30,015 nucleotides of DNA from Candidatus Korobacteraceae bacterium (GCA_052147365.1 JBKQKT010000028.1:1-30015); one strand, 5' to 3'; counted from the first letter of the stretch, positions 2 through 20,356 are shown. A program made the numbers and translations. Notes: generated by a model from the letters alone, not told the origin.

Positions 2-1450
2 CACGCCCATCTTGGAGCCAAAATCGGGGAGTCGTGAGGCGTGGTCCAGCGAATCCACCGGGCCGAGCGTGAACTGGATGTCGCGTTCGGGATCGATATT
101 GTTCAACACCTTCAGCGTGACGTCCGCGAGATCCTGCACGTTGACGTCCTCGTCTACCACCAGGATGCATTTGGTGGACATCGCCTGACCCAGCGCCCAG
201 ATGCCGTTCATCACCTTGCGCGCCTGGCCGGGATACGATTTCCTGATGGAGACGATCATCAGGTTGTGAAAGATACCCTCGATCGGCAGGTTCACGTCCA
301 CGATTTCGGGGATGGTGAGCCGCATCAGCGGCAGGAAGATTCGCTCCACGGCTTTGCCCATCCATGCGTCTTCCATCGGGGGCTTGCCGACGATGGTCGT
401 CGAGTAAATCGGATCCTTGCGGTGCGTGATGCAGGTAACGTGGAAGACAGGATAGAGGTCCTGCGGCGTGTAAAAACCGGTGTGGTCGCCGAAGGGGCCT
501 TCCATTCGTAACTCGTCGAGCTGCACGTAGCCTTCGAGGACGATCTCGGAGGTCGCGGGAACTTCGAGGTCAACCGTCTCGCACTTCACGAGCTCCACCG
601 GCTTCTGCCGCAGGAAGCCGGCGATCATGAACTCCTCGATATCGGGCGGCGCTGGCACGATAGACGAGAACATCACGGCCGGCTCAGTGCCGATGGCAAC
701 CGCGACTTCCATTCTTCCCGCAACCTGCTTCCCTTCGGCGACGCGCGAGCCGCCGCTGGAGCGCGCCATCATGTCGAGGGCCGCGGTAACGGGATGGGGT
801 TCTCCCGCCGCCGCAGCTTTGCGCATCTGTTCGCGATAATGCTCGGCGCCGTGCTTCTGTCGCTGCCAGTGCATCCCTGCGCTGGTGCTGTCGTAGATTT
901 GCATACGATAGACGCCGACATTGCGCTTGCCCGTCTTAGGGTCTTTCGTGATGACCGAAGGCAGCGTGATGAAGCGCCCGCCGTCGAGGGGCCAGCATTG
1001 CAATATCGGAAAATCGAGTAGCGAGAACTTGTCACGCTTTATGACTTCTTTGCACGGCCCGGTGGCGACTTCTTTGGGGAAGAACTTGCCCATCTCGGCC
1101 AGCATGGGCAGCATCTTGATTTTGTCGAGGAAACCCTGTGGCGATTTCACGTCCATGAAGTACTTGATACGGTCGGCAATTTCGTCCAACGAATCGACAT
1201 CGAGCGCCAGCTTCATGCGGCGTTCTGAACCAAACTGGTTAATCAGCAGCTTCGCGCCCGCATAGCCCTTGATGTTTTCAAACAGCAGCGCAGGCCCTCC
1301 AGGGCCATGCTTGCCACGTGGTCCCCACTTGGAGACGCGGTCGGTAATCTCGGCGATCTCCAGCACAGGATCAGCTCCCGCCTTGATACGTATCAGTTCT
1401 CCCGCCTTGTCCAGCGCGGAAATCCATTCCCTCAGGTCGTAGTAGGCCAA
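2..1450 (-). CDS. ubiD: UbiD-family (prFMN-dependent) decarboxylase, possibly the menaquinone/futalosine-pathway type; C-terminus runs off the window
   Basis: Not in the ORF track. Manual minus-strand translation from TTG at 1450 gives MAYYDLREWISALDKAGELIRIKAGADPVLEIAEITDRVSK...GPGGPALLFENIKG, a typical UbiD N-terminus. Later motifs include EGPFGDHTGFY and, at the window edge, DHASRLPDFGSKMGV in the same frame. Confidence 0.9.
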   Translation of the reverse strand, partial: MAYYDLREWISALDKAGELIRIKAGADPVLEIAEITDRVSKWGPRGKHGPGGPALLFENIKGYAGAKLLINQFGSERRMKLALDVDSLDEIADRIKYFMDVKSPQGFLDKIKMLPMLAEMGKFFPKEVATGPCKEVIKRDKFSLLDFPILQCWPLDGGRFITLPSVITKDPKTGKRNVGVYRMQIYDSTSAGMHWQRQKHGAEHYREQMRKAAAAGEPHPVTAALDMMARSSGGSRVAEGKQVAGRMEVAVAIGTEPAVMFSSIVPAPPDIEEFMIAGFLRQKPVELVKCETVDLEVPATSEIVLEGYVQLDELRMEGPFGDHTGFYTPQDLYPVFHVTCITHRKDPIYSTTIVGKPPMEDAWMGKAVERIFLPLMRLTIPEIVDVNLPIEGIFHNLMIVSIRKSYPGQARKVMNGIWALGQAMSTKCILVVDEDVNVQDLADVTLKVLNNIDPERDIQFTLGPVDSLDHASRLPDFGSKMGV

Positions 1451-1608
1451 CTCAGCCTCGCTTTAGTGGCAGACAACGCCGCAGCCGATTTCAGGTTCAA
1501 ACGTCCCCAAGGATTATAGAGGTGCCAGCGAAAGGCAGTGAGCGAAGAGTGACCTGCTGGCATGTGAACCGGGGGCCCATGGTGGATTCCAGACTGCAAA
1601 TATATTGC

Positions 1609-1698
1609 CAACAATTCACCCAAAGTGCCTTGCACTTACACCCGAATGGTTTAGAATGACCCAATTCAGTATGTGGGGAGAGTCGTGGTGAATTGTTG
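1609..1698. repeat. Perfect 12-bp inverted repeat flanking the putative promoter
   Basis: CAACAATTCACC (1609-1620) and GGTGAATTGTTG (1687-1698) are exact reverse complements. An inner palindrome AAGTGC-ctt-GCACTT lies at 1623-1637. Confidence 0.8.
1630..1657 (+). promoter_or_regulatory. Putative sigma70 promoter for the 1890-9107 operon
   Basis: TTGCAC (1630-1635), 16 nt spacer, TAGAAT (1652-1657); implies a leader of about 225 nt. Motif match only. Confidence 0.4.
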
Positions 1699-1889
1699 TC
1701 CTCCCGCGACGATGTTTTCAATAGACGCAACTTTATTGCAAAGATTGATTTTGCCGTGAGAGTTTTCACCCGTTTCGGCCGTCTCTGCAAAATTCACGCC
1801 CTCGGTTCGCCCTCGCTGTTCGCACACGCACGGAATACAATTGAAAACAGGCCACTGGGAGATCTATTCAACTTCTATAGGAGATCGCT

Positions 1890-3722
1890 ATGCCCGTGAC
1901 TCAGATCGATTTTCCGCTAGATAGACTGACACAACCGCAAACCGAAGAAGAGATACAGCGCAAGCTGGCGCAAGAGCGCGCCCGGCTGGCCAGCATGATG
2001 GGCCTTGACAGCGGCCCGGTTCGCCACTTCAAGCGCCCCGCGGAACGTCCTTTCGGTGCGGAAGAGCGCGGGAAGGTAACCATCCTCTTCGGCGGCCTGA
2101 CCTGGAAGCATGAACGGGTCATCCAGGCCGTCTTCCAAGGCTGCGGCTATCGCTGCGAGATCCTGCCGGTTCCCAATGTCTCGGCATTCCAGTTGGGCAA
2201 GGAATACGGCAATAACGGGCAGTGCAATCCGACGTATTTCACCGTTGGCAATCTGGTGCAGTATCTCCAGAGTCTTGAAGCCCGCGGGATGAGCAAGCAG
2301 GAGATCATTGATAATCACGTTTTCTTCACCGCCGGGTCCTGCGGACCGTGCCGCTTCGGCATGTATGAGTCCGAGTATCGCCTGGCTCTGCAGAACGCCG
2401 GTTTTGACGGTTTCCGGGTGCTGCTCTTCCAACAGAACGACGGCGTGAAGGCGGCTTCAGGCGAGTCCGGTCTTAAGTTCACTGTGGACTTCGGGATGGG
2501 CATGTTCAACGCCCTTAATCTCGGCGACATCATGAACGAGATGATCTACCGCATCCGGCCATACGAGGCGGAGAAGGGGACAACCGATCGCGTCTTCCAG
2601 GAGTCAATGGACACGTTGTGCACCATGCTGCGGGAGCGCAAGCCCTTCGAAGATCATGAAGACCTGCCGGAGTGGATGGCGAAGAAAATCCGCGCCAACA
2701 AAGGCAAAAAGTGGGAGGTCTGGGTCAACTCTCTGGCGAAAGTCCGCGAACAACTTTATGGCGATCCTTATAAGGAGGCGCTGGCTGCGGTCCGCCAGCA
2801 AATGGCAACCATCGAGGTGGATCGTTTGCGAGTGAAGCCAGTGGTCAAGATCATAGGCGAGTTCTGGGCACAGATCACCGAGGGCGACGGCAATTTCCAC
2901 ATGTTCGAGTTCCTCGAGCGGGAGGGTGCCCAAGTATTGGTCGAACCGATTGGCACCTGGATCATGTACATGATGTACCAGGTCAAGGCGCGTGCCGCGG
3001 CTCGCCGCTCGCTCGATGCTCCGTACAAGAAGGTGCAGTGGTATGAGCTGCACAAGATGGCGGTGAACGAGCTGAAATTCCGCCAGAAGCAGTGGTTGCT
3101 TGGCATCGGCGAGCACTTTTATGCGCGACAGTACCATCGCATCGTGGATGGACTGGGCAGCATAGCCCACCATTTGGTGGACCAGAAAGAAATGGCCGCG
3201 ATGGCCAACCCGTTCTACAACGAATTCGCCCGTGGCGGCGAAGGCCACCTGGAGGTGGGGAAGAACGTCTACTACACCAAGAACCAGCTCTGTCACATGG
3301 TGCTGGCCCTGAAGCCATTCGGGTGCATGCCTTCATCGCAGTCGGACGGCGTGCAGTCGGCGGTGGCAAACCACTTCAAGGAGATGATCTTCCTGCCCAT
3401 CGAAACTTCGGGAGAAGGCGAGATCAACGCCCACAGCCGCGTCCAGATGGCGCTAGGCGAGGCGAAAGTCAAAGCCCGCATGGAGTTCGATCAAGCGTTA
3501 AAGTCCACCGGCAAGCGCCTGGAGGACATCAAAGAGTACGTGGCCGAACATCCGGAGCTGCGCAACCTGTTCTATCCGGTGCCACACGTGCATGGATATG
3601 CGGGCATAGCAGCGAATTTTGTGCTGCACGTCAGCGATCTGATGAACGGCAAGAAGCGTCTCGCACGAGTGCCGGTGAAGGCCCCGAAGCAGCTGGAGGT
3701 AGCCACAGCCTTCGGCGACTAG
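1890..3722 (+). CDS. 2-hydroxyacyl-CoA dehydratase/reductase-like Fe-S protein (COG3581-like; PlsR-like)
   Basis: 610 aa with RBS TATAGGAG. Family motifs CNPTYFTVGNL, TAGSCGPCRFGMY, IIGEFW and LKPFGCMPS resemble the reductase partner of CoA-activase (PlsA) systems. Confidence 0.8.
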   Translation: MPVTQIDFPLDRLTQPQTEEEIQRKLAQERARLASMMGLDSGPVRHFKRPAERPFGAEERGKVTILFGGLTWKHERVIQAVFQGCGYRCEILPVPNVSAFQLGKEYGNNGQCNPTYFTVGNLVQYLQSLEARGMSKQEIIDNHVFFTAGSCGPCRFGMYESEYRLALQNAGFDGFRVLLFQQNDGVKAASGESGLKFTVDFGMGMFNALNLGDIMNEMIYRIRPYEAEKGTTDRVFQESMDTLCTMLRERKPFEDHEDLPEWMAKKIRANKGKKWEVWVNSLAKVREQLYGDPYKEALAAVRQQMATIEVDRLRVKPVVKIIGEFWAQITEGDGNFHMFEFLEREGAQVLVEPIGTWIMYMMYQVKARAAARRSLDAPYKKVQWYELHKMAVNELKFRQKQWLLGIGEHFYARQYHRIVDGLGSIAHHLVDQKEMAAMANPFYNEFARGGEGHLEVGKNVYYTKNQLCHMVLALKPFGCMPSSQSDGVQSAVANHFKEMIFLPIETSGEGEINAHSRVQMALGEAKVKARMEFDQALKSTGKRLEDIKEYVAEHPELRNLFYPVPHVHGYAGIAANFVLHVSDLMNGKKRLARVPVKAPKQLEVATAFGD

Positions 3723-3777
3723 TAGGCGGTTCTTTCATCAGGGTAAACATTCTTAGGAAAGAAAGGTCATTCACCCC

Positions 3778-5091
3778 ATGCCTGAAGTGGAGATACCGAA
3801 GGGTCCTGAAACACCCCCGTCGTATCGCCTTGATGTTCAACTACACGAGCTGCTGATGAAGCCGCCGGAACAGCCCCGGCTGCTGCCTGCTCCGCCCAAT
3901 GGCAAGGAGCAGAAGCTGCCGACGCCGGTATTTCCGCAGCATCCCGAGCTGATGACCGCGCGGGATGAGGACTACTTCCCCAAGAAAACCCATAACGGAC
4001 ACCGCACGCACAGCGCCAAGCACATCTACCGCGCGGCCAAGGGATGGGCGTTCCCGTTCTTCCGCTCGCGGATTATGCCCGGCGAATTTCACCCCATAAT
4101 CGCCTACCTGTTCAATGAGTGGAAATGCAACCTCGATTGCCACTATTGCTGGGCGTTCGATAACAGTGTTCGCGGCATGACCGAGGACGTGGCCAAGCGA
4201 TCCATCGACTGGCTGCACGACACCGGATGCCGGGTGCTGGCACTGATGGGCGGCGAGCCGCTGCTCCGACCCGACTTCGCCCACAAGATCTGCTACTACG
4301 CGGCGAAGAATGACTTTTGGATCTACTTGCCGACCAACGCCCGCCTGATGCGTCCGGAGGTGATCGACAAGTTGGCGGACGCCGGCGTTGCCACCTTCAA
4401 CATCGCGGTTGATGCATGGGACGTCAAACCCGGCCTGCCGAAGGCCATGGTGCCCATCCGCTCTTACTTCGATTACCTGATCAAGAAGCAGTACAAGTAC
4501 GGCTACTCGGTGTTCCTCAACATCAACATTTGCCACAACAATATGGACGATGTGCGGCAGTTGACGGAGTTGGCGCACGACAGCGGCATCGCCACCGACT
4601 ATCACATCTGCGAGTCGCCGATGACCGAGCAGCCTCACTTCAAGCATCTGTACTCGAACCCGACCTTCATCCGGGAGGAAGACCACCCGCTGGTGGCCGA
4701 GCTGGTGGACTGGCTGATCGCAAAGCAGAAGTCGGGCTACCACATGGTGAACTCGGTGGAGCGCCTGGCGCAGATGAAGGAATTCGTCCAGGGCGAACTT
4801 GATGACTGGAACTGCCGCGCGGGACACAACTCGCTGATTGTTCGCGTGGACGGCACGCTGGCGCCCTGCTTCCCCATGTATTCGGCAGGATATGACTGGG
4901 GAACGATTGAGAATCACAAGTTTGAAAATACGCAGTTGAAGGAAATGAAGAAAGAGTGCCAGAAGAATTGCTTCTCGACGCTGAACCACATCCTCGCGTT
5001 CTGCTACAACGATCGGCGGGTAATTACCTGGCTGTTGCGACAGGCCAGGCATGGGTTCCGGCACGTGGACGGCAACTTCGGCGATTCTTAG
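3778..5091 (+). CDS. Radical SAM protein with a C-terminal SPASM/twitch-like auxiliary cluster region
   Basis: CxxxCxxC motif CNLDCHYC (4126-4149), GGEPLL motif, and C-terminal CRAGHNSLIVRVDGTLAPC...CQKNC. The Pro-rich N-terminal extension makes the start uncertain. Confidence 0.92.
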   Translation: MPEVEIPKGPETPPSYRLDVQLHELLMKPPEQPRLLPAPPNGKEQKLPTPVFPQHPELMTARDEDYFPKKTHNGHRTHSAKHIYRAAKGWAFPFFRSRIMPGEFHPIIAYLFNEWKCNLDCHYCWAFDNSVRGMTEDVAKRSIDWLHDTGCRVLALMGGEPLLRPDFAHKICYYAAKNDFWIYLPTNARLMRPEVIDKLADAGVATFNIAVDAWDVKPGLPKAMVPIRSYFDYLIKKQYKYGYSVFLNINICHNNMDDVRQLTELAHDSGIATDYHICESPMTEQPHFKHLYSNPTFIREEDHPLVAELVDWLIAKQKSGYHMVNSVERLAQMKEFVQGELDDWNCRAGHNSLIVRVDGTLAPCFPMYSAGYDWGTIENHKFENTQLKEMKKECQKNCFSTLNHILAFCYNDRRVITWLLRQARHGFRHVDGNFGDS

Positions 5092-5115
5092 CCGTTTGGA
5101 TTTATAGGAGACACG

Positions 5116-8100
5116 GTGGCTTCACATTCTCACCAACACGGTTCCTGTAGCACGGGGGAGCAGAAAGTTGATGTTCAACTGGATGCTCTACTGAATTCGG
5201 CGCCCGTTGAAGAGTCGCTGCCGGCGCGGGTGATGGCCCGCTCCCGCGAAGTGAGCGCACAGTCCGGGCACAAGGCCGTCTATACCGTCGGCATGGATGT
5301 CGGGTCGACGACGGTCAAGGCTGTGGTGGTCAGTACTGAGGATGACCAGATCATCTGGCAGGACTACCAGCGCCACGAGACCAAACAGCCGGAGAAGCTG
5401 CTGGAGTTCCTCAAACGCATGCAGGAGGAAGTCGGCATTGCTCCGCACAATTGCCGCATCTTTATCACCGGCTCGGGCGGAGGCGCGCTGGCTAATCTGG
5501 TCGGCGCCAAGTTTGTACAGGAAGTCACCGCAGTCTCGCTCGCCGTCGAAAAGCTGCATCCCGAAGTGAATTCGGTGATCGAGCTGGGCGGTCAGGACGC
5601 AAAGATCATCGTCTTCAAAGAGGACGAGAACACCGGTCGCAAGAAGAAAATCCCTTCGATGAACGACAAATGCGCGGGCGGCACTGGCGCGGTGATCGAC
5701 AAGATCAATGCCAAGCTGAAAATTCCCGCCCAGGAACTCTGCGACCAGGGCTACATAGGAATCAAGTTGCATCCCGTGGCCGGCAAGTGCGGCGTCTTCG
5801 CCGAAACCGACATAAACGGCCTCCAGAAGCAGGGCATCCCACCCGATCAACTGATGGCGTCATTGTTCGACGCCATCGTTCTCCAGAACCTCACTGTATT
5901 AACTCGCGGCCACACTCTGCGCCCACACGTCCTGCTTCTTGGAGGCCCCAACAGTTTCATTCGCGGCATGAAAGAGGCCTGGCAGCAAAACATCCCGCGC
6001 ACCTGGGAGGAACGCAAAGTCCAGCTTCCCGAGGGATGCAAGCCGGAAGATCTGATCAAGGTCCCGGATAACGCCCAGTATTTTGCAGCCCTGGGCGCGG
6101 TTGAGTTTGGTAAGGACGAGGATACTGAAGTCGGTATTTACATGGGCACCGAGTGCCTTGAGGACTACATCTCTGTCGGCCGGCAGGTCGAAAAGGCGAA
6201 ATCCGGCAGTGCGGGTCTGAGCACCTCGGACGAAGAGCTGGCTGGATTTAAGCAGCAATACACGATTCCCAAGTTCATTGGCGCGAAGTTCGGCGTGGGC
6301 GAAACGGTGCGTGGATTTGTCGGCTTGGACGGTGGCTCGACATCGACCAAAGCGGTCCTGCTCTCGGAACAGGGCGACGTGCTGTGCAAGGCATATCAAC
6401 TGTCGGGTGGTAACCCGATCCAGGACACCATTGACATGTTTGTGGCGCTCCGCCAGCAGGTGGAGTCGCAGGGAGCGACGCTGGAGGTACTGGGGATCGG
6501 CACCACCGGATACGCCAAGGACGTTCTAAAGGACGTGCTCAAGGCCGATGTCGGGCTGGTCGAAACCGTAGCCCACACTGAATCGGCCATGAAGTTCTAC
6601 AAGAACCCGCACGTTATCGTGGATGTTGGTGGTCAGGACATCAAGCTGATCGTCCTCAAGGACGGGCGCGTCAAGGACTTCAAGCTGAACACGCAGTGCT
6701 CGGCAGGCAACGGGTACTTCCTGCAAGGTACAGCGGAGTCGCTCGGCTACAAAGTGGACGAATACGCCGACATCGCGTTTTCGGCCCAGACCATGCCGAT
6801 CTTCGGCTATGGCTGCGCGGTGTTTATGCAGTCCGACATTGTCAACTTCCAGCGGCAGGGCTGGCGTGGCGAAGAAATTCTCGCGGGTCTCGCAAATGTT
6901 CTGCCGAAGAACATCTTCCTTTATGTCGCGGGGATCCCGAACCTGGCCAAGCTGGGCTCGCGCTTCATCCTGCAGGGCGGGACGCAGAAGAACCTGGCGG
7001 CGGTTAAGTCGGAAGTGGATTTCATCCGCTCGCACTTCCATGGCGTGGAGCATGATCCAGAAGTCATCGTGCACGAACATTGCGGCGAATCGGGGGCCAT
7101 TGGCGCGGCCGTCGAAGCCGGCCGACTCTACAAGAACGGCCTTCGCACAACCTTCATCGGCCTCGATGCGGTCCAGAAGATCGGTTACCGCACCACGCGC
7201 AACGAAGACACGCGCTGCTACTTCTGCAAGAACAACTGCTTGCGTACCTTTATTGATGTGAATGTTGGCGACCAGCAAGAGCCCGCCTCGCCTCTGCCGG
7301 TGTTCAAGTCGAAGGTCCCACTGCAGACGGGCGAACGGCGGTTGATCATTTCGACCTGCGAAAAAGGACAGGTCGAGGATGTCGCCCAGATGCGTGGCAT
7401 CAAGGCCGGCTTAGACGCAATAAAAAATGCCAATCCTAACTTCGTCGACATTGCCGCTCGCGAAGTGTGGCGCTCACGAAATCCGCAGAAAGTTGCCGAC
7501 CCGATTCCTACGCGGCGTACCTGGAGCTCATCCGTCAAGCAGCGCATCGCGCTGATGAGCAAGCGCTCCACCCTGCGCGTAGGCATGCCGCGCGTTCTCA
7601 ATATGTATCTGTACGCGCCGTTGTTCAGCGCCTACCTCGAGAGCCTGGGCGTGGAGCCGGAGAACCTTGTCTATTCGGAGTTCACCGGCCAGGAGATGTA
7701 CCGCGCGGGCGCGGGCCGCGGGGCTATCGATCCCTGCTTCCCGTCGAAGATTGGTATCCCGCACGTTTATAACCTGATCTTCCAAAAGCACCAGAAGAAG
7801 CCGCTGGATGTCATCTTCTTCCCCATGATTGACACGATGCACCAGCCGCTGAAGAACTGCAGCGGCAGCAACGCTTGCCCCACCGTGACAGCTACGCCGA
7901 ATGCGGTGAAGGCGGCGTTCATCAAGGAGAGCGACGTCTTCAAGGAGAATGGGATTCAGTATCTCGACCCTATCCTGAACATCCACGACCCGAAGATGCT
8001 GGGCTTGCAGATGTTCCAGACCTGGGGGCCGATCCTCGGGCTGTCGGAGGAAGAAAACCAGCGCGCCCTGGAAGCAGGGCAGAAGGCCTTCGAGGACTTC

Positions 8101-8793
8101 GACCGCAGCATGCGCCAGCGTTCACGCGAAGTGCTGGACACGCTGGAGCGCGAGAACCGACTGGGCATCGTGATGCTGGGACGCGTTTATCACCATGATC
8201 CTGGCTTGAACCACGAGATCATGGAGGAGTTCCAGAAGCTCGGCTATCCCGTCTTCTCGCAGAGCTTCCTGCCCAATGACGATGACCTGCTTGACCGCCT
8301 GTTTGGCGAAGAAGTGCGCTCCGGTGGGGTCACCCATGCTCTCGACATCAAGGACGTTTGGAAAAACGCCTACTCCGGCAGCACGAATATCAAGATCTGG
8401 GCGGCGAAGTTCACCGCGCGGCACCCGAACCTGGTGGCGTTGGAAGTGAGCAATTTCAAATGCGGGCACGACGCGCCCATCTACAGCGTGATTGAAGACA
8501 TCATCGAGAATTCGGGCACGCCGTACTTTGCCTTCAAGGACCTGGACGAGAACAAGCCAACCGGCTCCATCAAGATCCGCGTCGAGACCATCGACTACTT
8601 CCTGAAACGCTACGGCGAAGACCTCCTGAAGAAGGCCGACGCCGCGAAGGAGTTGGAGCGTCAACTCGCCGAATACGAGCGCTCGCTGCGCATGCAGTTG
8701 ACGCACAAGTCCCTCCGGCAGGATGATAGGGTCATTCCGTTCCCGCAGACTGAGAACGAACCGCAAGCAACGACTGCTTCGGGAGACGACTAA
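5116..8793 (+). CDS. CoA-substrate enzyme activase: two BadF/BadG/BcrA/BcrD (ASKHA) ATPase domains plus a DUF2229-type reductase domain (PlsA/Ger-like)
   Basis: 1225 aa, GTG start after TATAGGAG. Domain 1: GMDVGSTTVK, ELGGQDAK, NDKCAGGTG, CGVFAETD. Domain 2: GLDGGSTSTK, DVGGQDIK, NTQCSAGNG, CAVFMQSD. Then a CYFCKNNC linker and a C-terminal region with VGMPRVLN, PCFPSK, CPTV and KCGHD. Confidence 0.92.
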   Translation: MASHSHQHGSCSTGEQKVDVQLDALLNSAPVEESLPARVMARSREVSAQSGHKAVYTVGMDVGSTTVKAVVVSTEDDQIIWQDYQRHETKQPEKLLEFLKRMQEEVGIAPHNCRIFITGSGGGALANLVGAKFVQEVTAVSLAVEKLHPEVNSVIELGGQDAKIIVFKEDENTGRKKKIPSMNDKCAGGTGAVIDKINAKLKIPAQELCDQGYIGIKLHPVAGKCGVFAETDINGLQKQGIPPDQLMASLFDAIVLQNLTVLTRGHTLRPHVLLLGGPNSFIRGMKEAWQQNIPRTWEERKVQLPEGCKPEDLIKVPDNAQYFAALGAVEFGKDEDTEVGIYMGTECLEDYISVGRQVEKAKSGSAGLSTSDEELAGFKQQYTIPKFIGAKFGVGETVRGFVGLDGGSTSTKAVLLSEQGDVLCKAYQLSGGNPIQDTIDMFVALRQQVESQGATLEVLGIGTTGYAKDVLKDVLKADVGLVETVAHTESAMKFYKNPHVIVDVGGQDIKLIVLKDGRVKDFKLNTQCSAGNGYFLQGTAESLGYKVDEYADIAFSAQTMPIFGYGCAVFMQSDIVNFQRQGWRGEEILAGLANVLPKNIFLYVAGIPNLAKLGSRFILQGGTQKNLAAVKSEVDFIRSHFHGVEHDPEVIVHEHCGESGAIGAAVEAGRLYKNGLRTTFIGLDAVQKIGYRTTRNEDTRCYFCKNNCLRTFIDVNVGDQQEPASPLPVFKSKVPLQTGERRLIISTCEKGQVEDVAQMRGIKAGLDAIKNANPNFVDIAAREVWRSRNPQKVADPIPTRRTWSSSVKQRIALMSKRSTLRVGMPRVLNMYLYAPLFSAYLESLGVEPENLVYSEFTGQEMYRAGAGRGAIDPCFPSKIGIPHVYNLIFQKHQKKPLDVIFFPMIDTMHQPLKNCSGSNACPTVTATPNAVKAAFIKESDVFKENGIQYLDPILNIHDPKMLGLQMFQTWGPILGLSEEENQRALEAGQKAFEDFDRSMRQRSREVLDTLERENRLGIVMLGRVYHHDPGLNHEIMEEFQKLGYPVFSQSFLPNDDDLLDRLFGEEVRSGGVTHALDIKDVWKNAYSGSTNIKIWAAKFTARHPNLVALEVSNFKCGHDAPIYSVIEDIIENSGTPYFAFKDLDENKPTGSIKIRVETIDYFLKRYGEDLLKKADAAKELERQLAEYERSLRMQLTHKSLRQDDRVIPFPQTENEPQATTASGDD

Positions 8794-8822
8794 TCCTGAA
8801 TAGTTGAATTGGGACCGAGCCC

Positions 8823-9107
8823 ATGCCCCTGACCAGTGATACCAAGAAGGTGATGTTCGAAATCTACCGCGAAAACAGCTTCGGCGGCCGCTACAGGGTG
8901 GTGTACTTCACCGAACTGGGTGAGCACGATAAAGAAACCGAAATCGCCGACGCCATGCGCGGCGAGCGAGTCTTCGATGGCTTTCTGTTACACCGCGAGC
9001 GCAACCAGGCCAAGCAGGTTGTAGATGAGATTCTCGACCGGCTGAACAGAGGTGAGCTAGTTGACGAAACCTTGATCGAGCAGAAGCTGCAGCCCTATCT
9101 GGCTTGA
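8823..9107 (+). CDS. Hypothetical protein (94 aa), probable last gene of the operon
   Basis: Co-oriented, 29 bp after the activase stop, with normal globular composition and no overlap with neighbours. No recognised motif. Confidence 0.75.
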   Translation: MPLTSDTKKVMFEIYRENSFGGRYRVVYFTELGEHDKETEIADAMRGERVFDGFLLHRERNQAKQVVDEILDRLNRGELVDETLIEQKLQPYLA

Positions 9108-9161
9108 GCCAGGGCTACCGAATCGTTCTATGAGCCCAATCTAGATGTAATCCTCTGTCGC

Positions 9162-10832
9162 TTACCTTTTGCCGCGTTTCTTCGCGGCTGCCTTCTTAGC
9201 CGGCGCCTTCTTCGCCGCAGCTTTCCCGGCCGTGGGCTTCCTGGTAGTTGACTTCTTCTTCGGAGCAGCTTTGCTTGCTGCCGGCTTGGCTTTCTTCGCT
9301 GGTTTGGCGGGAGGCGTTTTCCTGGCTGCAGCCTTGGCAACGGGAGCTTGGCTCTCCTTCTTCTCCTTTGCCGGCGCAGCAGCTTTCGTCGCGCCAAGTA
9401 CGGGCTTCAATTCCTCAGCCGTCACGGCGGGGGGCGGTGTTGCCGCACCGGCTGTGGCCTTGCGTCCGCGCTTGGCAGGTGCCGCTCCCGCCGTCCCAGA
9501 AGCAACCGCTGCTGCTTTACCTCGACCGCGCTTGACCGGCGGCGGTGGAGGCGGAGGCGGAGGCTCGTACGGCTTCAGGAAATGCATAATTTCCGTATGC
9601 GAGCGCAGCTTGCCATCCAGTAATAGCAGGAACGCTTCATCCAGGATCGTCTGGTATTCCGGAAGTTGAGGCGTGATGCGCAGTTCGGCCATCTCCGGAA
9701 ACGGCAACTTTTCTTTCATCTGCCGCCACTTGCCGAAGAAGTTCTTCAGCTTCGAATCCACCGCCTGCTGCCTGACCGTCAAGCTTAGAAACAACATATC
9801 TTCTGGTGAAGCCTTGGTAAGTATCTTCCACGCTCCCGAAGTTGTGCCGGCCTCCTTACTCGTCAACTTCTTCGCCAAGTCGCGGGCCCCGTGCTCCAGA
9901 TGCCTCCATTTGTTGACGAAGTCGCGTCGTGGAATCATGCGCTGTATCTCAGAGATGTCCTTGTCGCCCATGCGCCGCGTGAGGAAGTACATCACGATCG
10001 GGCCAGTCTCGACCGAATAACCCAGATCGTTCATCGTCTGACGCGTCTTTACAAACTGCCCCAGTTCCCCGGAGTCAATCTTGGCCATGCTCCAGTGGGG
10101 ATGCAGCACCTTGAGCCAGCCTTCCTTGTCGAGGGCACGCATGATGTGTAGCGGATCGTCTTCGTGGGCCGCCTGCTCCAACTCGTAGCCGACGGCGGGT
10201 TTGCCGATGTACTCGATGTAATTGTTTTCTTTGGCGGCGTCGTAACGCGCCTGCGTGCGCTCCTCGAGTGGCCAATGGAAACGCGCACTTAGGCGTGTCG
10301 CCCGGATCAAGCGAACCGGTTCCTCCAGGAAAGCGTAGTTGTGCAGTACGCGAAGCACCTTGGCTTCGATGTCGGCAATGCCGTTGAAGGGGTCCAGCAG
10401 CAGTCCGCGCGACCCTGGATTCAGTGACAGCGCCATGGCGTTCACAGTGAAGTCGCGGCGGCGGAGGTCTTCGTTGATGGTGGCTGGAGCAATGGAGGGC
10501 GGCTTGCCGGGCTTGTCGTGACTCTCGGCGCGGGTCATGTTCAACTCCGCGCGAACGTTCGCTGGCATGAGCAGGTGGAGTGTCCTGAGTTCTTCGTCAA
10601 CACCCTGTACCGATATATCCGCCTTCTCCAATTCCTTCTGGAGTTTGAGCGGATTACCTTGAATACTCAGGTCAACGTCACGGATCGGAAATCCAGTGAC
10701 TAGATCGCGGATGGTACCGCCGGTGAGGTAGAGGTTCAAGCCCGTATGCCGGGCAATCTCTTCCACCAGGTTCACGCCACGTTGTTGATCCGGGGTGAGC
10801 CGGGTTTCCATGCTATAGATGTAATCGGCCAT
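9162..10832 (-). CDS. Class II tRNA nucleotidyltransferase (CCA/A-adding) / poly(A) polymerase family, with a Pro/Lys/Ala-rich C-terminal tail
   Basis: Motif A GGTIRDL...DVD, motif B EDLRRRDFTVNAMA, DPFNGIADI, and motif D variant EEPVRLIRATR. The last ~130 aa are low-complexity K/A/P. Confidence 0.9.
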   Translation of the reverse strand: MADYIYSMETRLTPDQQRGVNLVEEIARHTGLNLYLTGGTIRDLVTGFPIRDVDLSIQGNPLKLQKELEKADISVQGVDEELRTLHLLMPANVRAELNMTRAESHDKPGKPPSIAPATINEDLRRRDFTVNAMALSLNPGSRGLLLDPFNGIADIEAKVLRVLHNYAFLEEPVRLIRATRLSARFHWPLEERTQARYDAAKENNYIEYIGKPAVGYELEQAAHEDDPLHIMRALDKEGWLKVLHPHWSMAKIDSGELGQFVKTRQTMNDLGYSVETGPIVMYFLTRRMGDKDISEIQRMIPRRDFVNKWRHLEHGARDLAKKLTSKEAGTTSGAWKILTKASPEDMLFLSLTVRQQAVDSKLKNFFGKWRQMKEKLPFPEMAELRITPQLPEYQTILDEAFLLLLDGKLRSHTEIMHFLKPYEPPPPPPPPPVKRGRGKAAAVASGTAGAAPAKRGRKATAGAATPPPAVTAEELKPVLGATKAAAPAKEKKESQAPVAKAAARKTPPAKPAKKAKPAASKAAPKKKSTTRKPTAGKAAAKKAPAKKAAAKKRGKR

Positions 10833-11138
10833 CTAATTATCTGACTCTAATAGCGATATCCTGAAATGTGCGAATCAAGCAGCATGGCCCTTAAAGGCCG
10901 GGATCGGTGGATCGAAACTCTCATATTCCGCCGTCTGATATGGCCCAAAAGCGCCATCCCCGCGAGCCATAAACATGCAACTAACTCACTCGAATGAACT
11001 TAGAGGCTCTCAATAGTCCCACTTGCCGCTCAGCGAACAATAACACAAGGTTGACAGTTTGGCTACACAGGAGCTTAGGGGTGGGCATCTTCCGCGCAAA
11101 AGTGCGACAATCGGGCTGACGGGGCTCGCTTAGCACCC

Positions 11139-11615
11139 ATGGCAACAACGCACAAGAAGATCATCGTCCGTAAGATGGATCGCGACACCGTAAACGGTTA
11201 CGTCAGCGCAGCTTTCATTTCAGAGGGAAAGATCGAGCTGTTGAACACCGCCGGCAACGTGGTTTCAATTGATCTGCGCGAGGTCAAGGGTGTGTACTTT
11301 GTACGCGAATTCGGCGAGCCCGAGTCGCTGACTCGAAAGACGTTCACTTCCCGGCCACGCAGTGAGGGATTGTGGGTGCGGTTACGCTTTAGGGACAACG
11401 AGACGATTGAAGGCATGATGCCGAACTCCCTGCTGCAAGAGGGGGTTGAAGGCTTCTCCATTATCCCGCCTGACACCCGCTCCAACACACAGCGCATCTT
11501 TGTGCCGCGTTCGGCGCTCGCCGAACTGACGGTGCTCGCTGTGATTGGCGACAAAAAGTCGCGACCCCGGGGCCAGCGTCCCGAGGACACACGTCAAGTG
11601 CCAATGTTCACCTGA
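11139..11615 (+). CDS. Conserved hypothetical protein (158 aa; resembles acidobacterial DUF6982-type proteins from memory)
   Basis: Clean ORF co-oriented with lpxD and 33 bp upstream of it; beta-rich sequence. The family label is unverified recall. Confidence 0.7.
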   Translation: MATTHKKIIVRKMDRDTVNGYVSAAFISEGKIELLNTAGNVVSIDLREVKGVYFVREFGEPESLTRKTFTSRPRSEGLWVRLRFRDNETIEGMMPNSLLQEGVEGFSIIPPDTRSNTQRIFVPRSALAELTVLAVIGDKKSRPRGQRPEDTRQVPMFT

Positions 11616-11648
11616 GCCCTTTCCGCGGTTGTAATTTTTGCGGTCGAA

Positions 11649-12692
11649 ATGCCGAATATGAAACTGGCTGAACTCGCATCGGTGCTGGGCGCCACGCTGG
11701 AGAACGGAGATCCTGACGCCGAGATCAGCGGAGTTGCCGGAATCGAAGAGGCGACCGCGGGATGCATCTCTTTCGTCGCCAATCCGAAATACGCCGCCGC
11801 GGCAAAGACCACCTCGGCCTCGGCGGTGATTGTCTCCGAGGACTTCCCTGCCATCACCGCCGGGATGCTGCGCAGTAAGAATCCTTATCTTGCCTTTGCC
11901 CGAGCAATCGATCTCTTCTATAAGGCCCCGACGTATGGCGCGGGTGTCCACCCCACTGCGGTGATTGCGCCAACGGCAACGGTGGGGAAGAATGCTCACA
12001 TCGGGGCATATGTCGTGATCGGCGATGACGTCCAGATCGGAAGCAACGCGGTGCTATTGCCCCACGTTGTCATCTACCGTGGCGCCCGGATTGGTGAAAA
12101 TTTTTTTGCCCATGCGCATGCCGTGGTTCGCGAACATTGCACGCTGGGCAACAACGTCGTTCTGCAGAACGGGGCAGTGGTCGGCTGCGACGGTTTTGGA
12201 TTCGCCCGCGATGATGACCACTGGGAGAAAATCACGCAATCCGGTCCCACCGTGCTGGAAAGTGATGTCGAAGTACAGGCGAACGCCTGCGTCGACCGGG
12301 CGAGTATCGGCGAAACCCGCATTGGCCGTGGCGTCAAGATCGACAATTTGGCGCAAGTGGGGCACGGCTCCGCGGTCGGGGCGCATTCGCTGCTTTGCTC
12401 GCAGGTTGGCCTCGCCGGGTCGACCGTGGTCGGCAAGAACGTCATTCTCGCCGGTCAGGTGGGTGTGGCCGGACACTGCAACATCGGCGACGGAGTCATA
12501 GTGACCGCCCAGAGCGGCACTCACGGTGATATTCCACCCGGCGCGATGGTGAGTGGTTCTCCCGCCTTCGATCACAAACAATGGTTGCGAGCCGTTGGTA
12601 TCTTCAATAAACTGCCAGAGCTTGCAAAAACGGTTCGGGGTCTTATGGCTGGCCGCCAAAACGGTACCGATCCTCCAAAGAACGGACCGTAA
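11649..12692 (+). CDS. lpxD: UDP-3-O-(3-hydroxyacyl)glucosamine N-acyltransferase
   Basis: N-terminal ISFVANPKY domain, hexapeptide repeats, VVGCDGFGF, KIDNLAQVGH, LAGQVGVAGH. Alternative start at 11658. Confidence 0.96.
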   Translation: MPNMKLAELASVLGATLENGDPDAEISGVAGIEEATAGCISFVANPKYAAAAKTTSASAVIVSEDFPAITAGMLRSKNPYLAFARAIDLFYKAPTYGAGVHPTAVIAPTATVGKNAHIGAYVVIGDDVQIGSNAVLLPHVVIYRGARIGENFFAHAHAVVREHCTLGNNVVLQNGAVVGCDGFGFARDDDHWEKITQSGPTVLESDVEVQANACVDRASIGETRIGRGVKIDNLAQVGHGSAVGAHSLLCSQVGLAGSTVVGKNVILAGQVGVAGHCNIGDGVIVTAQSGTHGDIPPGAMVSGSPAFDHKQWLRAVGIFNKLPELAKTVRGLMAGRQNGTDPPKNGP

Positions 12693-12784
12693 CGCCTGCG
12701 TTTCTGCGCAAAGTTGTCTGAGACTCTCGGTTACCCCGGACGTAAGCTATCGGCCAGCACTGGGCGGCATCCAACTGCGTAACG

Positions 12785-13591
12785 ATGAGCGAAGATACCT
12801 TCAAGCCAGCCCCTCCCCAAGCTAAGGGACCACAGTTGGTGCCGGCCGCGCCGATTCGCGTCCTATTGCTCGATGACCGCGAAGAGAACCTCGTTCTGCG
12901 CTCGGCTATCCTGCGCCAGAAGGGGTATGAGGTAGTCGCTACCAGTTCCATCGAGGAAGCCAAAGCCAAGCTCAACGTTATTGATATTGCCGTTCTGGAC
13001 TACCATCTCGGCGCAGGCAAGTTCGGAACTGATGTGGCCGAAACCCTGCGCCGCAAGCGTCCGCAAGTCCCCATCATCATTCTGTCAGCTACTTTGGAAC
13101 GCAAGTTCGGCGGTATCGCCGACATGCACCTGTTAAAGGGCTACAGCTCAGTGGACGACCTGGTGGCAGCGCTGCGCTCCTTCGAGGGCAAGAAGCGCGG
13201 GCGCCCGGTGGTGGTAGATGCGCGCGACTTTTACTATTCGCGTATTTCAATGGCGATGGGGGACGATATTGTGGTCGAGATTCTCGATCGCGACGGCAAC
13301 TGGCAATATGTCAACGACTACTTCGCTGCCATGAATGAACACCCACGCGCATGGTTCGCCGGCAAGAACCTATTCGACCAGTTTCCGGACTTGGGGGACG
13401 AGTGGCGCGAAATCGTGCGCACCGTCGCCGATACGCGCGAAACCTACATTGATCGCCGCGCGCTACACGGCACGTCGCATCTCCCCGCCAAGAGTCCACA
13501 CTGGAATTGGAACGTTCTCATTTTCCCTATCAAGCTGCACGATGACCGCGATGGCGCTTTACTTACGGCGCGGCTGATCGAAAAAAAATAA
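12785..13591 (+). CDS. Response regulator receiver domain plus a C-terminal PAS-like domain, no output domain
   Basis: Receiver motifs VLLLDD, AVLDYHL, IIILSA and LLKG. The C-terminal half has PAS-like features (ILDRDGNWQYVND...GKNLFDQFP). Confidence 0.85.
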   Translation: MSEDTFKPAPPQAKGPQLVPAAPIRVLLLDDREENLVLRSAILRQKGYEVVATSSIEEAKAKLNVIDIAVLDYHLGAGKFGTDVAETLRRKRPQVPIIILSATLERKFGGIADMHLLKGYSSVDDLVAALRSFEGKKRGRPVVVDARDFYYSRISMAMGDDIVVEILDRDGNWQYVNDYFAAMNEHPRAWFAGKNLFDQFPDLGDEWREIVRTVADTRETYIDRRALHGTSHLPAKSPHWNWNVLIFPIKLHDDRDGALLTARLIEKK

Positions 13592-13598
13592 TGCCGAA

Positions 13599-14348
13599 TT
13601 AATACACCTCGTATCCTGGTGGAGGCGAGCGGAAATCCGGCTTGCGGGCGATCAGCAATAAAGCTCCGATGCGCTTGAATTCCCGCAACTCCTCGGCGTT
13701 CTTGAACCACTTCCCGCTGTATTCCTGGGGCGTCGGTGTCAGGTCAGGAATGCGCACGGCACGCACATTTTCAAAGGTGTGCGCCTTGAGCAGGTCAAGA
13801 TATTCCTGCTCGGAACGTGCCTGCACCGGGACCTTCAGTTCATTCATCCAGCGCAGCGAATACGGATTATCTTTGTAGAGATTGATCAGGATAAACAGCT
13901 CGCCCCTCGGCGCCATTACGCGAAACAGTTCAGCCAATGCACGCTCCTGGTCGGCATAGTAGTAAAAGGATTCGACCGACAGCACTTTATCGAAGAAATT
14001 CTCCTCCCATGGAATTCGCTCCGCCGAGCCGACTACAAACATCACGTTGTCGTAACCGGCAGAGTTGGCGCGTGCACGGCGTATCATCTCATCGGAAACG
14101 TCGAGGCCGATTGCCTGTCCCGGCCGCTCGCCGGCGCCAACGACTCGCGCCACGAGCCGCGTCGCCCATCCCGCGCCGCACCCCAGGTCGAGCACCCGCT
14201 GGCCTGACTGGAGGTCCATCACTGCCAGCGTCTGCTCAGTAATACTGATGTGATGGTTTTCCATCTCTTCCCCGCGGCCTTGCTCGGCCCACTGGTCGAA
14301 CTCCTTGCGCAAGCGCTCGTCTGCATTGATGGTCATGTTCTCGGTCAT
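13599..14348 (-). CDS. Class I SAM-dependent methyltransferase
   Basis: Motif I VLDLGCGAGW, GLDVSDEMI, GSAERIPW, FDKVLSVESFYY. Start could be 14336. Confidence 0.92.
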   Translation of the reverse strand: MTENMTINADERLRKEFDQWAEQGRGEEMENHHISITEQTLAVMDLQSGQRVLDLGCGAGWATRLVARVVGAGERPGQAIGLDVSDEMIRRARANSAGYDNVMFVVGSAERIPWEENFFDKVLSVESFYYYADQERALAELFRVMAPRGELFILINLYKDNPYSLRWMNELKVPVQARSEQEYLDLLKAHTFENVRAVRIPDLTPTPQEYSGKWFKNAEELREFKRIGALLLIARKPDFRSPPPGYEVY

Positions 14349-14394
14349 CGCTCCTCGCGGATTTCGAAGGTCTATGCTACAGTCTCCGGAACTG

Positions 14395-14565
14395 ATGGCT
14401 CAACTTCCTCCAACCCCCTCGAACGGCCACGACCGCTCAGAGTTCTACTGCCCCAACTGTGCGCGCGAAGTGGATGACCCGCTAACCTGCGGCGACTGCT
14501 CGGCCATTATCTGCCGTGTGTGCGGGACGCCGCTGGAGGTGCCCGAGGATCTAGGCATCGGCTGA
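14395..14565 (+). CDS. Small Cys-rich (putative zinc-binding) protein, 56 aa
   Basis: Three CxxC pairs (CPNC, CGDC, CRVC). Start reassigned to the ATG at 14395 because the tracked 14305 start overlaps the methyltransferase. The stop is 3 bp before the permease. Confidence 0.7.
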   Translation: MAQLPPTPSNGHDRSEFYCPNCAREVDDPLTCGDCSAIICRVCGTPLEVPEDLGIG

Positions 14566-14568
14566 TCC

Positions 14569-15996
14569 ATGGCGCATGGGGCAACATCGCAGGCAACACC
14601 GGCGAAGCAGCAAGAACCTTCGCTTGTCCGTGGGCTATCACTCATGGATGCGGTGATGCTGCTCGTCGGCGGCATCATCGGCTCGGGAATCTTTCTCACG
14701 GCCGCGCCAATCGCTTCGGCGGTGCATACTCCTTTGTTCTTCCTCGGAATCTGGCTGATCGGCGGCGTCATCACTCTGCTCGCGTGCTTCGCCTTCGCGG
14801 AGATGGCTGCAATGTTCCCTGAGGCAGGCGGACAATACGTTTTTCTCCGCGAGGCTTACGGCGAGTTTCCGGCATTTCTGTACGGATGGATGATCTTCGC
14901 GGTCGGCCAGAGCGGAACCATTGCCGCCCTCGCCGTCGGTTTTGCGGAATACTTTGGTGCGGTGGTGCCCTTCGTCTCGGCCCGCGCACCGATCATGACG
15001 ATCCTGGGGTGGACATTCACACGCGGGCACATCGTTTCCATCTGCGCCGTTGTTTTGTTGACAACCATCAACGTCCTCGGCCTGAAGCGCGGTTCCGCGT
15101 TGATCAACATTGCGACCTGGGCCAAGTTTGCCGCCATCGGTACATTCATTCTGCTCGGCCTTGCGATTGGTCATGGTCACTGGTCGAACTATGCAGTCAG
15201 CATGCCGGCCGATCAGCCGGTTACTCTTGGTCATGTGCTTTCCGGGTTCGGCGTTGCGTTGATCGGCGTCTTCTGGGCCTTTGATGGCTGGGTCTACATC
15301 ACCTGGGTGGGGGGAGAAATCAAAAACCCACAGCGCGTGCTGCCGAGCGCCATGATGATGGGTGTGCTGCTGGTCGGCGTCATCTATCTGGCCATCAACG
15401 CCGTGTATCTTTATGCCCTGCCCATCACGCGGGTCGCGCAGGAAGAAACCATCGCGCACGCGGCCGCGGTCACGCTCTTCTCCTCGAACGCCGCCCGCTG
15501 GCTGAGCGCGGTGATTGCGCTCTCCTGCTTTGGGGCCATGTCGAGCGCCATCCTGTGTAGCGCCCGTGTCTCCTTCGCCATGGCTCGTGATGGCGCGTTC
15601 TTTCATGCCATGGGCCGCGTGCATCCACGCTATCGCACGCCGGCGTTCAGTTTGATCGCGCTCAGCTCGTGGGCGGTCGTGTTGGCGCTCAGCGGCAGCT
15701 TCGACCAGCTCTATACCTACGTAATGTTCATGATGGTGCTGTCGTACGCAGCAGCGGTAGTGGGTCTGTTCGTGCTGCGGCGCAAACGGCCCGACGTGCC
15801 TCGTCCGTACCGCTGCACGGGATACCCGTACTTACCGGCGCTGTACGTCTTCATGGCAGGAGCATGGGCCCTGAACTCCGTCGTTACCCGTCCGAAGGAG
15901 ACACTGATCGGCATGGTGATTGTCTTCCTCGGCGCACCGTTCTACGTCTTTTGGAGATGGCAATTAAAGCGGCAGGGCCGTGGTACGCCCGAGTGA
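14569..15996 (+). CDS. APC-family amino acid permease
   Basis: About 12 hydrophobic segments; GGIIGSGIF, PEAGGQYVFLREAYG, WAFDGW, HPRYRTP, RPYRCTGYP. Confidence 0.93.
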   Translation: MAHGATSQATPAKQQEPSLVRGLSLMDAVMLLVGGIIGSGIFLTAAPIASAVHTPLFFLGIWLIGGVITLLACFAFAEMAAMFPEAGGQYVFLREAYGEFPAFLYGWMIFAVGQSGTIAALAVGFAEYFGAVVPFVSARAPIMTILGWTFTRGHIVSICAVVLLTTINVLGLKRGSALINIATWAKFAAIGTFILLGLAIGHGHWSNYAVSMPADQPVTLGHVLSGFGVALIGVFWAFDGWVYITWVGGEIKNPQRVLPSAMMMGVLLVGVIYLAINAVYLYALPITRVAQEETIAHAAAVTLFSSNAARWLSAVIALSCFGAMSSAILCSARVSFAMARDGAFFHAMGRVHPRYRTPAFSLIALSSWAVVLALSGSFDQLYTYVMFMMVLSYAAAVVGLFVLRRKRPDVPRPYRCTGYPYLPALYVFMAGAWALNSVVTRPKETLIGMVIVFLGAPFYVFWRWQLKRQGRGTPE

Positions 15997-16102
15997 AACA
16001 AATAAGACCTCCCTTGATCCCCATGGCTGAAACAAATCGTCTGCGATGGAGTTTGTTAATTTGGCATCGAGCAATGCAAGCTCAGTGTGAGAGAATTCGA
16101 CT

Positions 16103-17572: not shown

Positions 17573-17646
17573 GCGAAAAGTTGGTGAGCAGTTCAAGTGC
17601 CAGGCGTCGCTAGGCTAACACCCTCGGGGCCAAGCTTGCGGACTCT

Positions 17647-20229: not shown

Positions 20230-20356
20230 AAATGTTCGTCGGTGAGCTTGGGATAAACTTTGATTTTACAACGTGGGAAGGAAGCCGTTAGAACTGGTAG
20301 ATCGTGGGCAGTGAGCTACCAAATCGGTCGGATCAAAGAAAACCTGGGAGGTGCTG

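Follow-up and report, generated by a model that had tools for sequence, protein, structure and literature searches.

A PlsA/PlsR-type reductase pair and its conserved radical SAM partner in Terriglobales: a candidate operon for ether lipid synthesis in Acidobacteria

Here we describe a four-gene locus from the metagenome-assembled genome (MAG) of a Candidatus Korobacteraceae bacterium (GCA_052147365.1), in which the two subunits of a putative PlsA/PlsR-type reductase are accompanied by a radical S-adenosylmethionine (SAM) enzyme and a small protein. The locus lies at positions 1890-9107 of a stretch of 30,015 nucleotides (JBKQKT010000028.1:1-30015), hereafter the window, which is the entire contig C28 of this MAG (G000; 5.66 Mb in 820 contigs, 91.6% complete). 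There is good evidence that the partnership of the radical SAM gene with the reductase pair is conserved and not a matter of chance proximity. The explanation that we favor is that the pair forms a split, ATP-driven iron-sulfur (Fe-S) reductase that makes ether glycerolipids at low O2, with the radical SAM enzyme and the small protein as co-evolved accessories. This explanation, in which the four genes would form one operon and the radical SAM enzyme would have been recruited beside the pair in Terriglobales, is judged as a whole to be about evenly balanced between right and wrong.

The interval is occupied by four open reading frames (ORFs) on the + strand, which are separated by 55, 24 and 29 bp. 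The same nonamer precedes genes 1 and 3, just as a preliminary description of the window had stated. The features are:

1877..1885, +: TATAGGAGA, Shine-Dalgarno-like, before gene 1; read directly, 4 nt ahead of the ATG
1890..3722, +: gene 1, PlsR-like (second reductase module, Red2), 610 aa; from BLASTP, invariant cysteines and predicted fold
3778..5091, +: gene 2, radical SAM enzyme of SPASM/twitch type, 437 aa; from PF04055, cysteine pattern and AlphaFold2 (AF2) model
5103..5111, +: TATAGGAGA, Shine-Dalgarno-like, before gene 3; read directly, 4 nt ahead of the GTG, identical to the nonamer of gene 1
5116..8793, +: gene 3, PlsA-like 'BBD' protein, 1225 aa, GTG start; from two PF01869 and one PF09989
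8823..9107, +: gene 4, 94 aa, cysteine-free; an ORF with no Pfam match

The PlsA/PlsR-like reductase pair

The protein encoded by gene 3 contains two stretches that matched PF01869 (BcrAD_BadFG ATPase; E = 1.6e-66) in Pfam, and its residues 821-1050 matched PF09989/DUF2229 (E = 1.4e-46; 159 bits vs. a cut-off of 29.4). It also matched the NCBIfam model TIGR00241 in two stretches (208 bits), and residues 58-254 and 402-632 matched the sequences of HgdC (1hux), MbdQ, HadI and DCCP-R in the PDB. Ten cysteines were invariant among 21 sequences that included distant acidobacterial PlsA-like proteins: two pairs, one per ATPase domain (C186/C225 and C528/C567), three that form a CxxCxxxC motif (C701/C704/C708), and C874, C921 and C1116 within the reductase module. 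Judged from their positions and not from a residue-by-residue alignment, the cysteine pairs of the ATPase domains appear to be equivalent to the cluster ligands of HgdC. No PF06050 (HGD-D) domain was found in gene 1 or the last 225 aa of gene 3 at E <= 10, nor in the whole of gene 3 at E <= 0.01.

Gene 1 had no match to Pfam or NCBIfam families or to PDB sequences. In BLASTP comparisons with other Acidobacteriota, it aligned with the C-terminal part (~1010-1400) of fused BBD proteins of ~1400 aa and with the products of separate 420-490-aa genes downstream of ~1030-aa BBD genes; in both kinds of BBD protein, fused and split, gene 3 aligned to residues 1-1015. Because such homologs exist as fused proteins, the products of genes 1 and 3 are expected to interact. 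Three cysteines of gene 1 are invariant (C112, C154 and C479) and probably ligate a [4Fe-4S] cluster. The best matches of its AF2 model (predicted local distance difference test, pLDDT, 84) in Foldseek were HadBC (3o3m), DCCP (6eno), MbdON (9gai) and BzdNO (8s02), each with a probability of 1.0, and VIA-align gave Z scores of 8-11 over 210-280 residues, including 10.9 to DCCP 7yyl_A and 9.1 to HadC 3o3n_B. The predicted fold of gene 1 is that of the catalytic subunits of 2-hydroxyacyl-CoA dehydratases (HAD; here 2-hydroxyisocaproyl-CoA dehydratase), class I benzoyl-CoA reductases (BCR) and double-cubane cluster protein (DCCP).

By sequence comparison, the gene 3 product is the counterpart of PlsA (Act1-Act2-Red1) and that of gene 1 the counterpart of PlsR (Red2). 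In the preliminary description, gene 3 was read as two complete activase ATPase domains with Fe-S cysteines and a reductase region, which the two PF01869 domains, PF09989 and the ten invariant cysteines confirm. Its view of gene 1 as a stand-alone reductase-type protein was borne out by the homology to PlsA-like C termini, the three cysteines and the fold, not by a family match. Its assignment of both genes to the PlsA/PlsR/Ger type agrees with the architecture found here, i.e., a BBD protein plus a separate reductase module, a call made by sequence and fold.

In Clostridium perfringens, PlsA (CPE1195, 1004 aa) and PlsR (CPE1194, 420 aa) constitute an anaerobic plasmalogen synthase, as described from Jackson et al. 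(2021) in PMC12838417 and PMC10087280. Like the window pair, this system consists of two proteins, of which one carries two activase ATPase domains and the first reductase module and the other carries the second; both systems have conserved Fe-S cysteines and are self-contained units without partners that handle coenzyme A (CoA). Unlike it, the window locus has an additional radical SAM gene and a 94-aa gene. The glycerol ester reductase Ger (Thermotoga maritima Tmari_0479 and Desulfatibacillum alkenivorans; PMC13159169) shares the core of two PF01869 and one PF09989 and has a proposed role in formation of saturated alkyl ethers, a kind of lipid that Acidobacteria contain. Ger homologs have been reported in the ether lipid producers Edaphobacter aggregans and Holophaga foetida (Sahonero-Canavesi et al., 2022; PMC13159169), and only the BBD core is conserved among the producers of alkyl ethers (PMC13159169). 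Our comparisons support the placement of the pair as a divergent subfamily of the PlsA/PlsR-Ger type, which may or may not belong to Ger proper.

A similar pair has been reported in Solibacter usitatus, in which Acid_0922 (1188 aa) matched C. perfringens PlsA (1004 aa) with 30.2% identity, 96% coverage and an E-value of 1.5e-126, and Acid_0921 (589 aa) matched PlsR (420 aa) with 20.9% identity and an E-value of 2.3e-14 (Halamka et al., 2023; PMC10087280 Table S6). Acid_0921/0922 were proposed for the ester-to-ether conversion in the synthesis of brGDGTs (glycerol dialkyl glycerol tetraethers with branched chains) (PMC10087280), and the same hypothesis is put forward here for the window pair, whose likeness to them is one of protein sizes and gene order only, with the PlsR-like gene first and the PlsA-like gene second. 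Unlike in the window, no radical SAM partner was mentioned for the S. usitatus pair (PMC10087280), and in the nearest sampled relative with an S. usitatus-type pair (G279), the radical SAM ortholog is 2.3 Mb away from the pair. The preliminary description suggested that the operon might be an undescribed variant; pairs with the sizes and gene order of the window pair had, however, already been proposed as PlsAR/Ger homologs in S. usitatus and E. aggregans, so that the pair itself is a published candidate. The radical SAM gene in the operon, which the preliminary description also considered undescribed, has no published description that we could find. Likewise, the three gene arrangements described below and gene 4 were found in no paper.

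The radical SAM gene as a conserved partner of the pair

Gene 2 matched the radical SAM family PF04055 (E = 1.9e-19) and scored 16.8 bits with the SPASM domain PF13186, under the cut-off of 21.5. Its invariant cysteines form a CX3CX2C motif (C117, C121 and C124), followed by C346, C364, C394 and C398 in the C-terminal part, i.e., four vs. seven in the full SPASM set. The N-terminus has a proline-rich extension of ~100 aa with a conserved LPxPVFPQxPE sequence. All matches to NCBIfam were far under their cut-offs; the best was PapB with 60 of 340 bits, and a maturase of tungsten-cofactor oxidoreductases was also among the nearest models. The folds nearest to its AF2 model (pLDDT 78) were those of CteB, BlsE, anSME, SkfB, SuiB and viperin, and its structural neighbors were SPASM/twitch enzymes with E-values of 1e-9 to 1e-11. 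With such enzymes (CteB 5why, anSME 4k36, BlsE 7vob and SkfB 6efn) gene 2 shares the CX3CX2C core and a putative C-terminal auxiliary-cluster domain. From the model and the cysteine pattern, gene 2 is best described as a twitch-like enzyme with one predicted auxiliary cluster, outside the curated families.

Several identities were rejected for gene 2. It is not the tetraether synthase Tes: the Tes model NF045702 (cut-off 450 bits) was outside its best 25 families, all of which scored <=60 bits, GDGT-MAS was absent from its PDB matches, and its identity to a true Tes was 23% over 107 aa. Nor is it HpnH (TIGR03470), to which it scored 40.3 bits vs. a cut-off of 225 and whose PF11946 (DUF3463) it lacks; HpnH was linked to gene 2 as a language-model neighbor only. 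Scores and domains also ruled out a B12-dependent class B enzyme. Gene 2 is orthologous to neither Tes nor HpnH; its four auxiliary cysteines, as against the seven of SPASM, and its N-terminal extension set it apart from the SPASM/twitch and lipid radical SAM enzymes compared.

The gene 2 family is compact (144 clusters at E <= 1e-30 in a library of 1.8 billion representatives). Its distant relatives in this library (28-47% identity) occur alone or in sugar-nucleotide contexts, with no adjoining BBD genes. In one locus (L150), a 41%-identical relative (P0165, 2116-3216) overlaps the 3' end of an Lgt gene (1308-2162), which is a single hint that the gene 2 family may act on glycerolipids.

The distribution of the genes was analyzed in 301 Acidobacteriota genomes (phylum sample), in 201 Terriglobales genomes and in 80 species-level genomes of close relatives, all of them peat, bog or soil MAGs with a gene 1 identity of >=74%. 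In the phylum sample, gene 1 was found in 20 genomes and the radical SAM gene in 27. Besides the window's own genome, gene 1 adjoins an ortholog of gene 3 in 19/19 of the genomes that have it, and the trees of genes 1 and 3 agree. Among the close relatives, the order gene 1-gene 2-gene 3-gene 4 is kept in 69/80 and gene 2 was lost in 3/80; in the rest, the locus is truncated, or gene 4 is undetected (n = 3) or located upstream on the opposite strand (n = 1). The triplet is kept in relatives that have different flanks. In L074, L088 and L085, the operon is intact save for the radical SAM gene, and gene 1 is followed directly by gene 3.

In Terriglobales, the radical SAM gene was found in 46 genomes and gene 1 in 60, and 45 of the 46 genomes with the radical SAM gene also hold gene 1. 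The radical SAM gene is beside the pair in 31 of these 45 genomes, in three gene orders (arrangements were read from coordinates, and six were inspected directly):

radical SAM gene-gene 1-gene 3: 10 genomes
gene 1-radical SAM gene-gene 3: 8 genomes
gene 1-gene 3-radical SAM gene: 13 genomes
radical SAM gene unlinked to the pair: 11 genomes
arrangement undetermined because of fragmented assemblies: 3 genomes

All three linked orders fall inside one clade of the gene 1 tree, alongside lineages that lost the radical SAM gene, and the linked radical SAM genes form one clade, with support of 96/89 that became 100/98 when more rows were added. The adjacency has thus survived repeated reshuffling, which is good evidence of functional coupling. 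The unlinked orthologs have no recurrent partner; their neighbors include ABC-F ATPases, Ser/Thr kinases, TonB receptors, permeases, DUF2238 proteins and HXXEE membrane proteins. The preliminary description had pointed to a radical SAM gene between the two subunits. What stands of this is the partnership, given the 69 close relatives with the order of the window and the 45 of 46 Terriglobales genomes; the position between the genes holds in some lineages only, as in others the gene precedes or follows the pair, is unlinked or is absent, and other classes hold the gene without the pair.

Gene 4, flanking genes and expression

Gene 4 follows gene 3 in 71 of the 80 close relatives and likewise in G010, G075, G239, G004 and G147. 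In L057-L060 (gene 1 identity 74%), its homolog is divergently oriented upstream of gene 1 (8086-8370, - strand). Gene 4 thus stays with the locus though its order has changed, and it is a conserved companion of the pair. It could be thought of as the precursor of a ribosomally synthesized and post-translationally modified peptide (RiPP) for the radical SAM enzyme; this was rejected, because it is cysteine-free and remains with the pair where the radical SAM gene is absent (G010 and G004).

On the 5' side, the four genes are preceded by a menaquinone decarboxylase of the UbiD family (SCO4490 type, futalosine route; window 2-1450, - strand), which is also upstream in an 85% relative (L056), and by a 97-aa ORF without any family match (1497-1790, - strand) between the decarboxylase and gene 1. 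On the 3' side is a CCA/poly(A)-polymerase-like gene on the opposite strand. With flanking genes on the opposite strand, the four genes therefore stand as a unit. Positions 11649-26142 hold housekeeping genes, i.e., those for LpxD, a response regulator with a PAS domain, a methyltransferase, an amino acid permease, leucyl-tRNA synthetase, a short-chain dehydrogenase/reductase, 3-deoxy-D-arabino-heptulosonate 7-phosphate synthase, a beta-propeller lactonase-like protein and MurB.

A scan of the window for a sigma-54 promoter ahead of gene 1 revealed none on the + strand, its matches being at chance level, and scans for sigma-70 promoters and terminators were likewise at chance level. Contigs of a wetland metatranscriptome (run X9; window 1500-9400) matched all four genes with 95-100% identity and bridged the junctions between genes 1 and 2 and between genes 3 and 4, which is a weak indication of joint transcription, as DNA carry-over is possible.

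Three complete genomes (G373, G360 and G453), which are probably those of cultured isolates, have the order radical SAM gene-gene 1-gene 3, followed by an ORF of 370-430 aa and preceded by a divergent ORF of ~695 aa. In G373 (L141; G373:C1:1413000-1432000), the operon spans 7302-15386 (+ strand), the downstream ORF is an FtsX/MacB-like permease according to Pfam, and the divergent upstream ORF (4920-7007, - strand) is a GAF-GAF-sigma-54 activator. A near-consensus -24/-12 promoter (aGGCAC-N5-TTGCT) lies at ~7143-7158, ahead of the radical SAM gene. The 430-aa downstream ORF of G360 had no Pfam match, and in G453 the ORF in the position of the G373 permease is known to be similar by size alone.

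Proposed role in ether lipid synthesis and alternatives

In the explanation that we favor, the products of genes 3 and 1 would constitute a split, ATP-driven, low-potential [4Fe-4S] reductase. Within the BCR/HAD superfamily, this reductase would belong to the PlsA/PlsR-Ger branch. If it works as PlsAR and Ger do, the activase domains would hydrolyze ATP to push an electron into the clusters of the reductase modules, and when O2 is limited these clusters would convert the acyl ester at the sn-1 position of a membrane glycerolipid, through an intermediate of ketyl type, into an alk(en)yl ether. The radical SAM enzyme, with one radical SAM cluster and one predicted auxiliary cluster, would be an accessory of the same pathway that most likely acts on the same lipid or its ether product, and the small protein encoded by gene 4 would assist the pair. 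The parts of this proposal that concern the genes and proteins themselves have direct support from architecture, homology, cofactor cysteines, fold, co-inheritance and adjacency. The lipid substrate, the ether product, the dependence on O2 and whatever role the radical SAM enzyme plays are inferred, and the radical chemistry on the lipid chain that the preliminary description suggested is likewise hypothetical.

Several observations weigh against this explanation. The identities to related acidobacterial proteins are low, i.e., 19-26% for gene 1 (BLASTP E-values of 1e-28 to 1e-7) and 24-30% between gene 3 and other acidobacterial PlsA-like proteins. Compared with PlsR and PlsA, gene 1 is ~190 aa and gene 3 ~220 aa longer, and Ger is by its described architecture a single fused protein with additional D and HGD-D segments (BBDHDDH), whereas the window enzyme is split and without PF06050. 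No transmembrane segment was predicted in any of the four proteins, and contigs from an RNA library do not prove transcription of the operon. Of the 60 Terriglobales genomes with gene 1, 15 yielded no radical SAM gene; conversely, gene 1 is missing from 17 genomes, all in other classes, among the 27 of the phylum sample that hold the radical SAM gene. Neither gene, then, strictly needs the other. A further point, which bears on a role of gene 2 in the lipid chain, is the Tes-like paralog described below.

The substrate of the pair may instead be no lipid but, for example, a soluble carbonyl, an aromatic or another small molecule. The pair would then be a radical reductase or dehydratase of the BCR/HAD type, and the radical SAM enzyme would catalyze another step of the same pathway; we regard this as unlikely, albeit as an alternative to be taken seriously. 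The divergence of the pair's subfamily and the lack of membrane segments are in keeping with it, and LpxD, 2.5 kb away, is the sole lipid gene in the window. The predicted fold of gene 1 is as near to DCCP, HadC, MbdO and BzdO as to anything, and the likeness of the window enzyme to HadBC (3o3m), BzdNO (8s02), MbdON (9gai) and DCCP (6eno/7yyl) extends to the three-cysteine cluster sites and the HgdC-like ATP-driven activation. In all of these enzymes, however, the activators are small proteins of their own and the substrates are CoA thioesters or small molecules, and Hgd and Bcr have subunits of the HGD-D family, whereas the window enzyme has its activase domains fused in tandem to a reductase module, has no PF06050 and is without recurrent CoA genes. 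No gene for a CoA-transferase, CoA-ligase or acyl-CoA dehydrogenase recurred around the pair in more than 30 loci, and the neighbors of the pair in other genomes likewise included no recurrent partner; a lone acetyl-CoA hydrolase/transferase gene was found near the pair in G397 only. In this respect the pair resembles plsAR and differs from the Hgd, Fld and Bcr systems. Also speaking for a lipid substrate are the architecture of a BBD protein plus a separate reductase module, which is that of PlsA/PlsR and not of Hgd/Bcr, and the published best matches of the like S. usitatus pair, which are PlsA and PlsR (PMC10087280).

A related PlsAR-like pair is, moreover, linked to a Tes. In another acidobacterial lineage (L046; G210:C22:39000-48500), a true Tes (878-2506; 565 bits with NF045702 vs. 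the cut-off of 450) is directly upstream of another PlsA-like BBD gene (ending at 5967), which is followed by a PlsR-like gene (5772-7229). The Tes beside this pair points to more than one coupling of a PlsAR-type reductase with a lipid radical SAM enzyme. Two further, independent hints of a link to lipids are the FtsX/MacB-like permease behind gene 3 in G373 and the overlap of a gene 2 relative with Lgt in L150.

The radical SAM enzyme might also be a maturase of the reductase, i.e., an enzyme that puts in or remodels a metal cluster or a protein modification and does not act on lipids, which we consider improbable. In Terriglobales, its gene is nearly always accompanied by gene 1, whereas 15 genomes have gene 1 alone, a distribution typical of an accessory factor; its nearest folds include the protein- or peptide-modifying SPASM enzymes CteB, anSME, SuiB and SkfB, and PapB and the tungsten-cofactor oxidoreductase maturase are among its nearest NCBIfam models. 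The same 15 genomes count against such a role as well, as do the 17 genomes of other classes with the radical SAM gene and no gene 1, and no domain like a RiPP recognition element was evident in the AF2 model of gene 2.

The scan of the 201 Terriglobales genomes with the Tes model revealed a true Tes in 25, and 18 of these hold the radical SAM gene and the pair as well. A Tes-like paralog of ~700 aa, which scored ~320 bits with NF045702 and is thus under the cut-off, was found in 201/201 genomes, including G000 (C308:5206-6765, - strand). Iso-diabolic acid has been reported in almost all cultures of subdivisions 1 and 3, and no homologs of mss, the gene for the membrane-spanning lipid synthase of T. 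maritima and T. ethanolicus, were found in cultured Acidobacteria with the authors' thresholds of e <= 1e-50 and identity >= 30% (PMC13159169). As the Tes-like paralog is present in all 201 genomes and gene 2 was not found in 155 of them, its distribution agrees much more closely with how widely iso-diabolic acid occurs; it is a better candidate than gene 2 for the coupling of lipid tails and the widespread synthesis of iso-diabolic acid, and the distribution rules out gene 2 as a general iso-diabolic acid synthase. That gene 2 is nevertheless an acidobacterial synthase of membrane-spanning lipids, an analog of Mss/Tes that would let the operon make ether-bound iso-diabolic acid lipids, the core of brGDGTs, in one unit, is highly improbable, for although gene 2 belongs to the Fe-S radical enzymes and has a predicted auxiliary cluster, cultured Acidobacteria lack detected mss homologs and a true Tes adjoins the PlsA-like gene of G210, gene 2 is no Tes homolog, has one auxiliary cluster only and is too narrowly distributed beside the ubiquitous paralog.

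Returning to the proposed ether-forming reductase with its accessory radical SAM enzyme, the latter might supply a step beyond that of an sn-1-specific reductase and so convert ester-bound iso-diabolic acid lipids to fully ether-bound brGDGT-type lipids. We consider this more specific role doubtful. The step could be formation of the sn-2 ether or conversion of a vinyl-ether or hemiacetal intermediate to a saturated ether. If true, the pair, the radical SAM enzyme and Tes or a Tes-like enzyme would be a core toolkit for acidobacterial tetraethers.

BrGDGTs are among the most widely used terrestrial proxies of past temperature and pH. We know of no established bacterial genes for their ether bonds and membrane-spanning chains, especially in Acidobacteria, which to our knowledge are the only cultured producers of brGDGTs. 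In Terriglobales, one particular radical SAM family is inherited almost without exception together with the pair and adjoins it through three gene orders. This, the presence of the arrangement in complete genomes and the small companion protein sharpen the lead on ether lipids, and our findings separate gene 2 from the Tes-like paralog, which is more likely to be the tail coupler. If the pair does not act on lipids, the published assignment in S. usitatus would need revision. With its compact, clonable set of three to four genes, which is suited to lipidomics, this operon of a peat-soil acidobacterium provides a testable lead on bacterial synthesis of ether lipids and brGDGTs.

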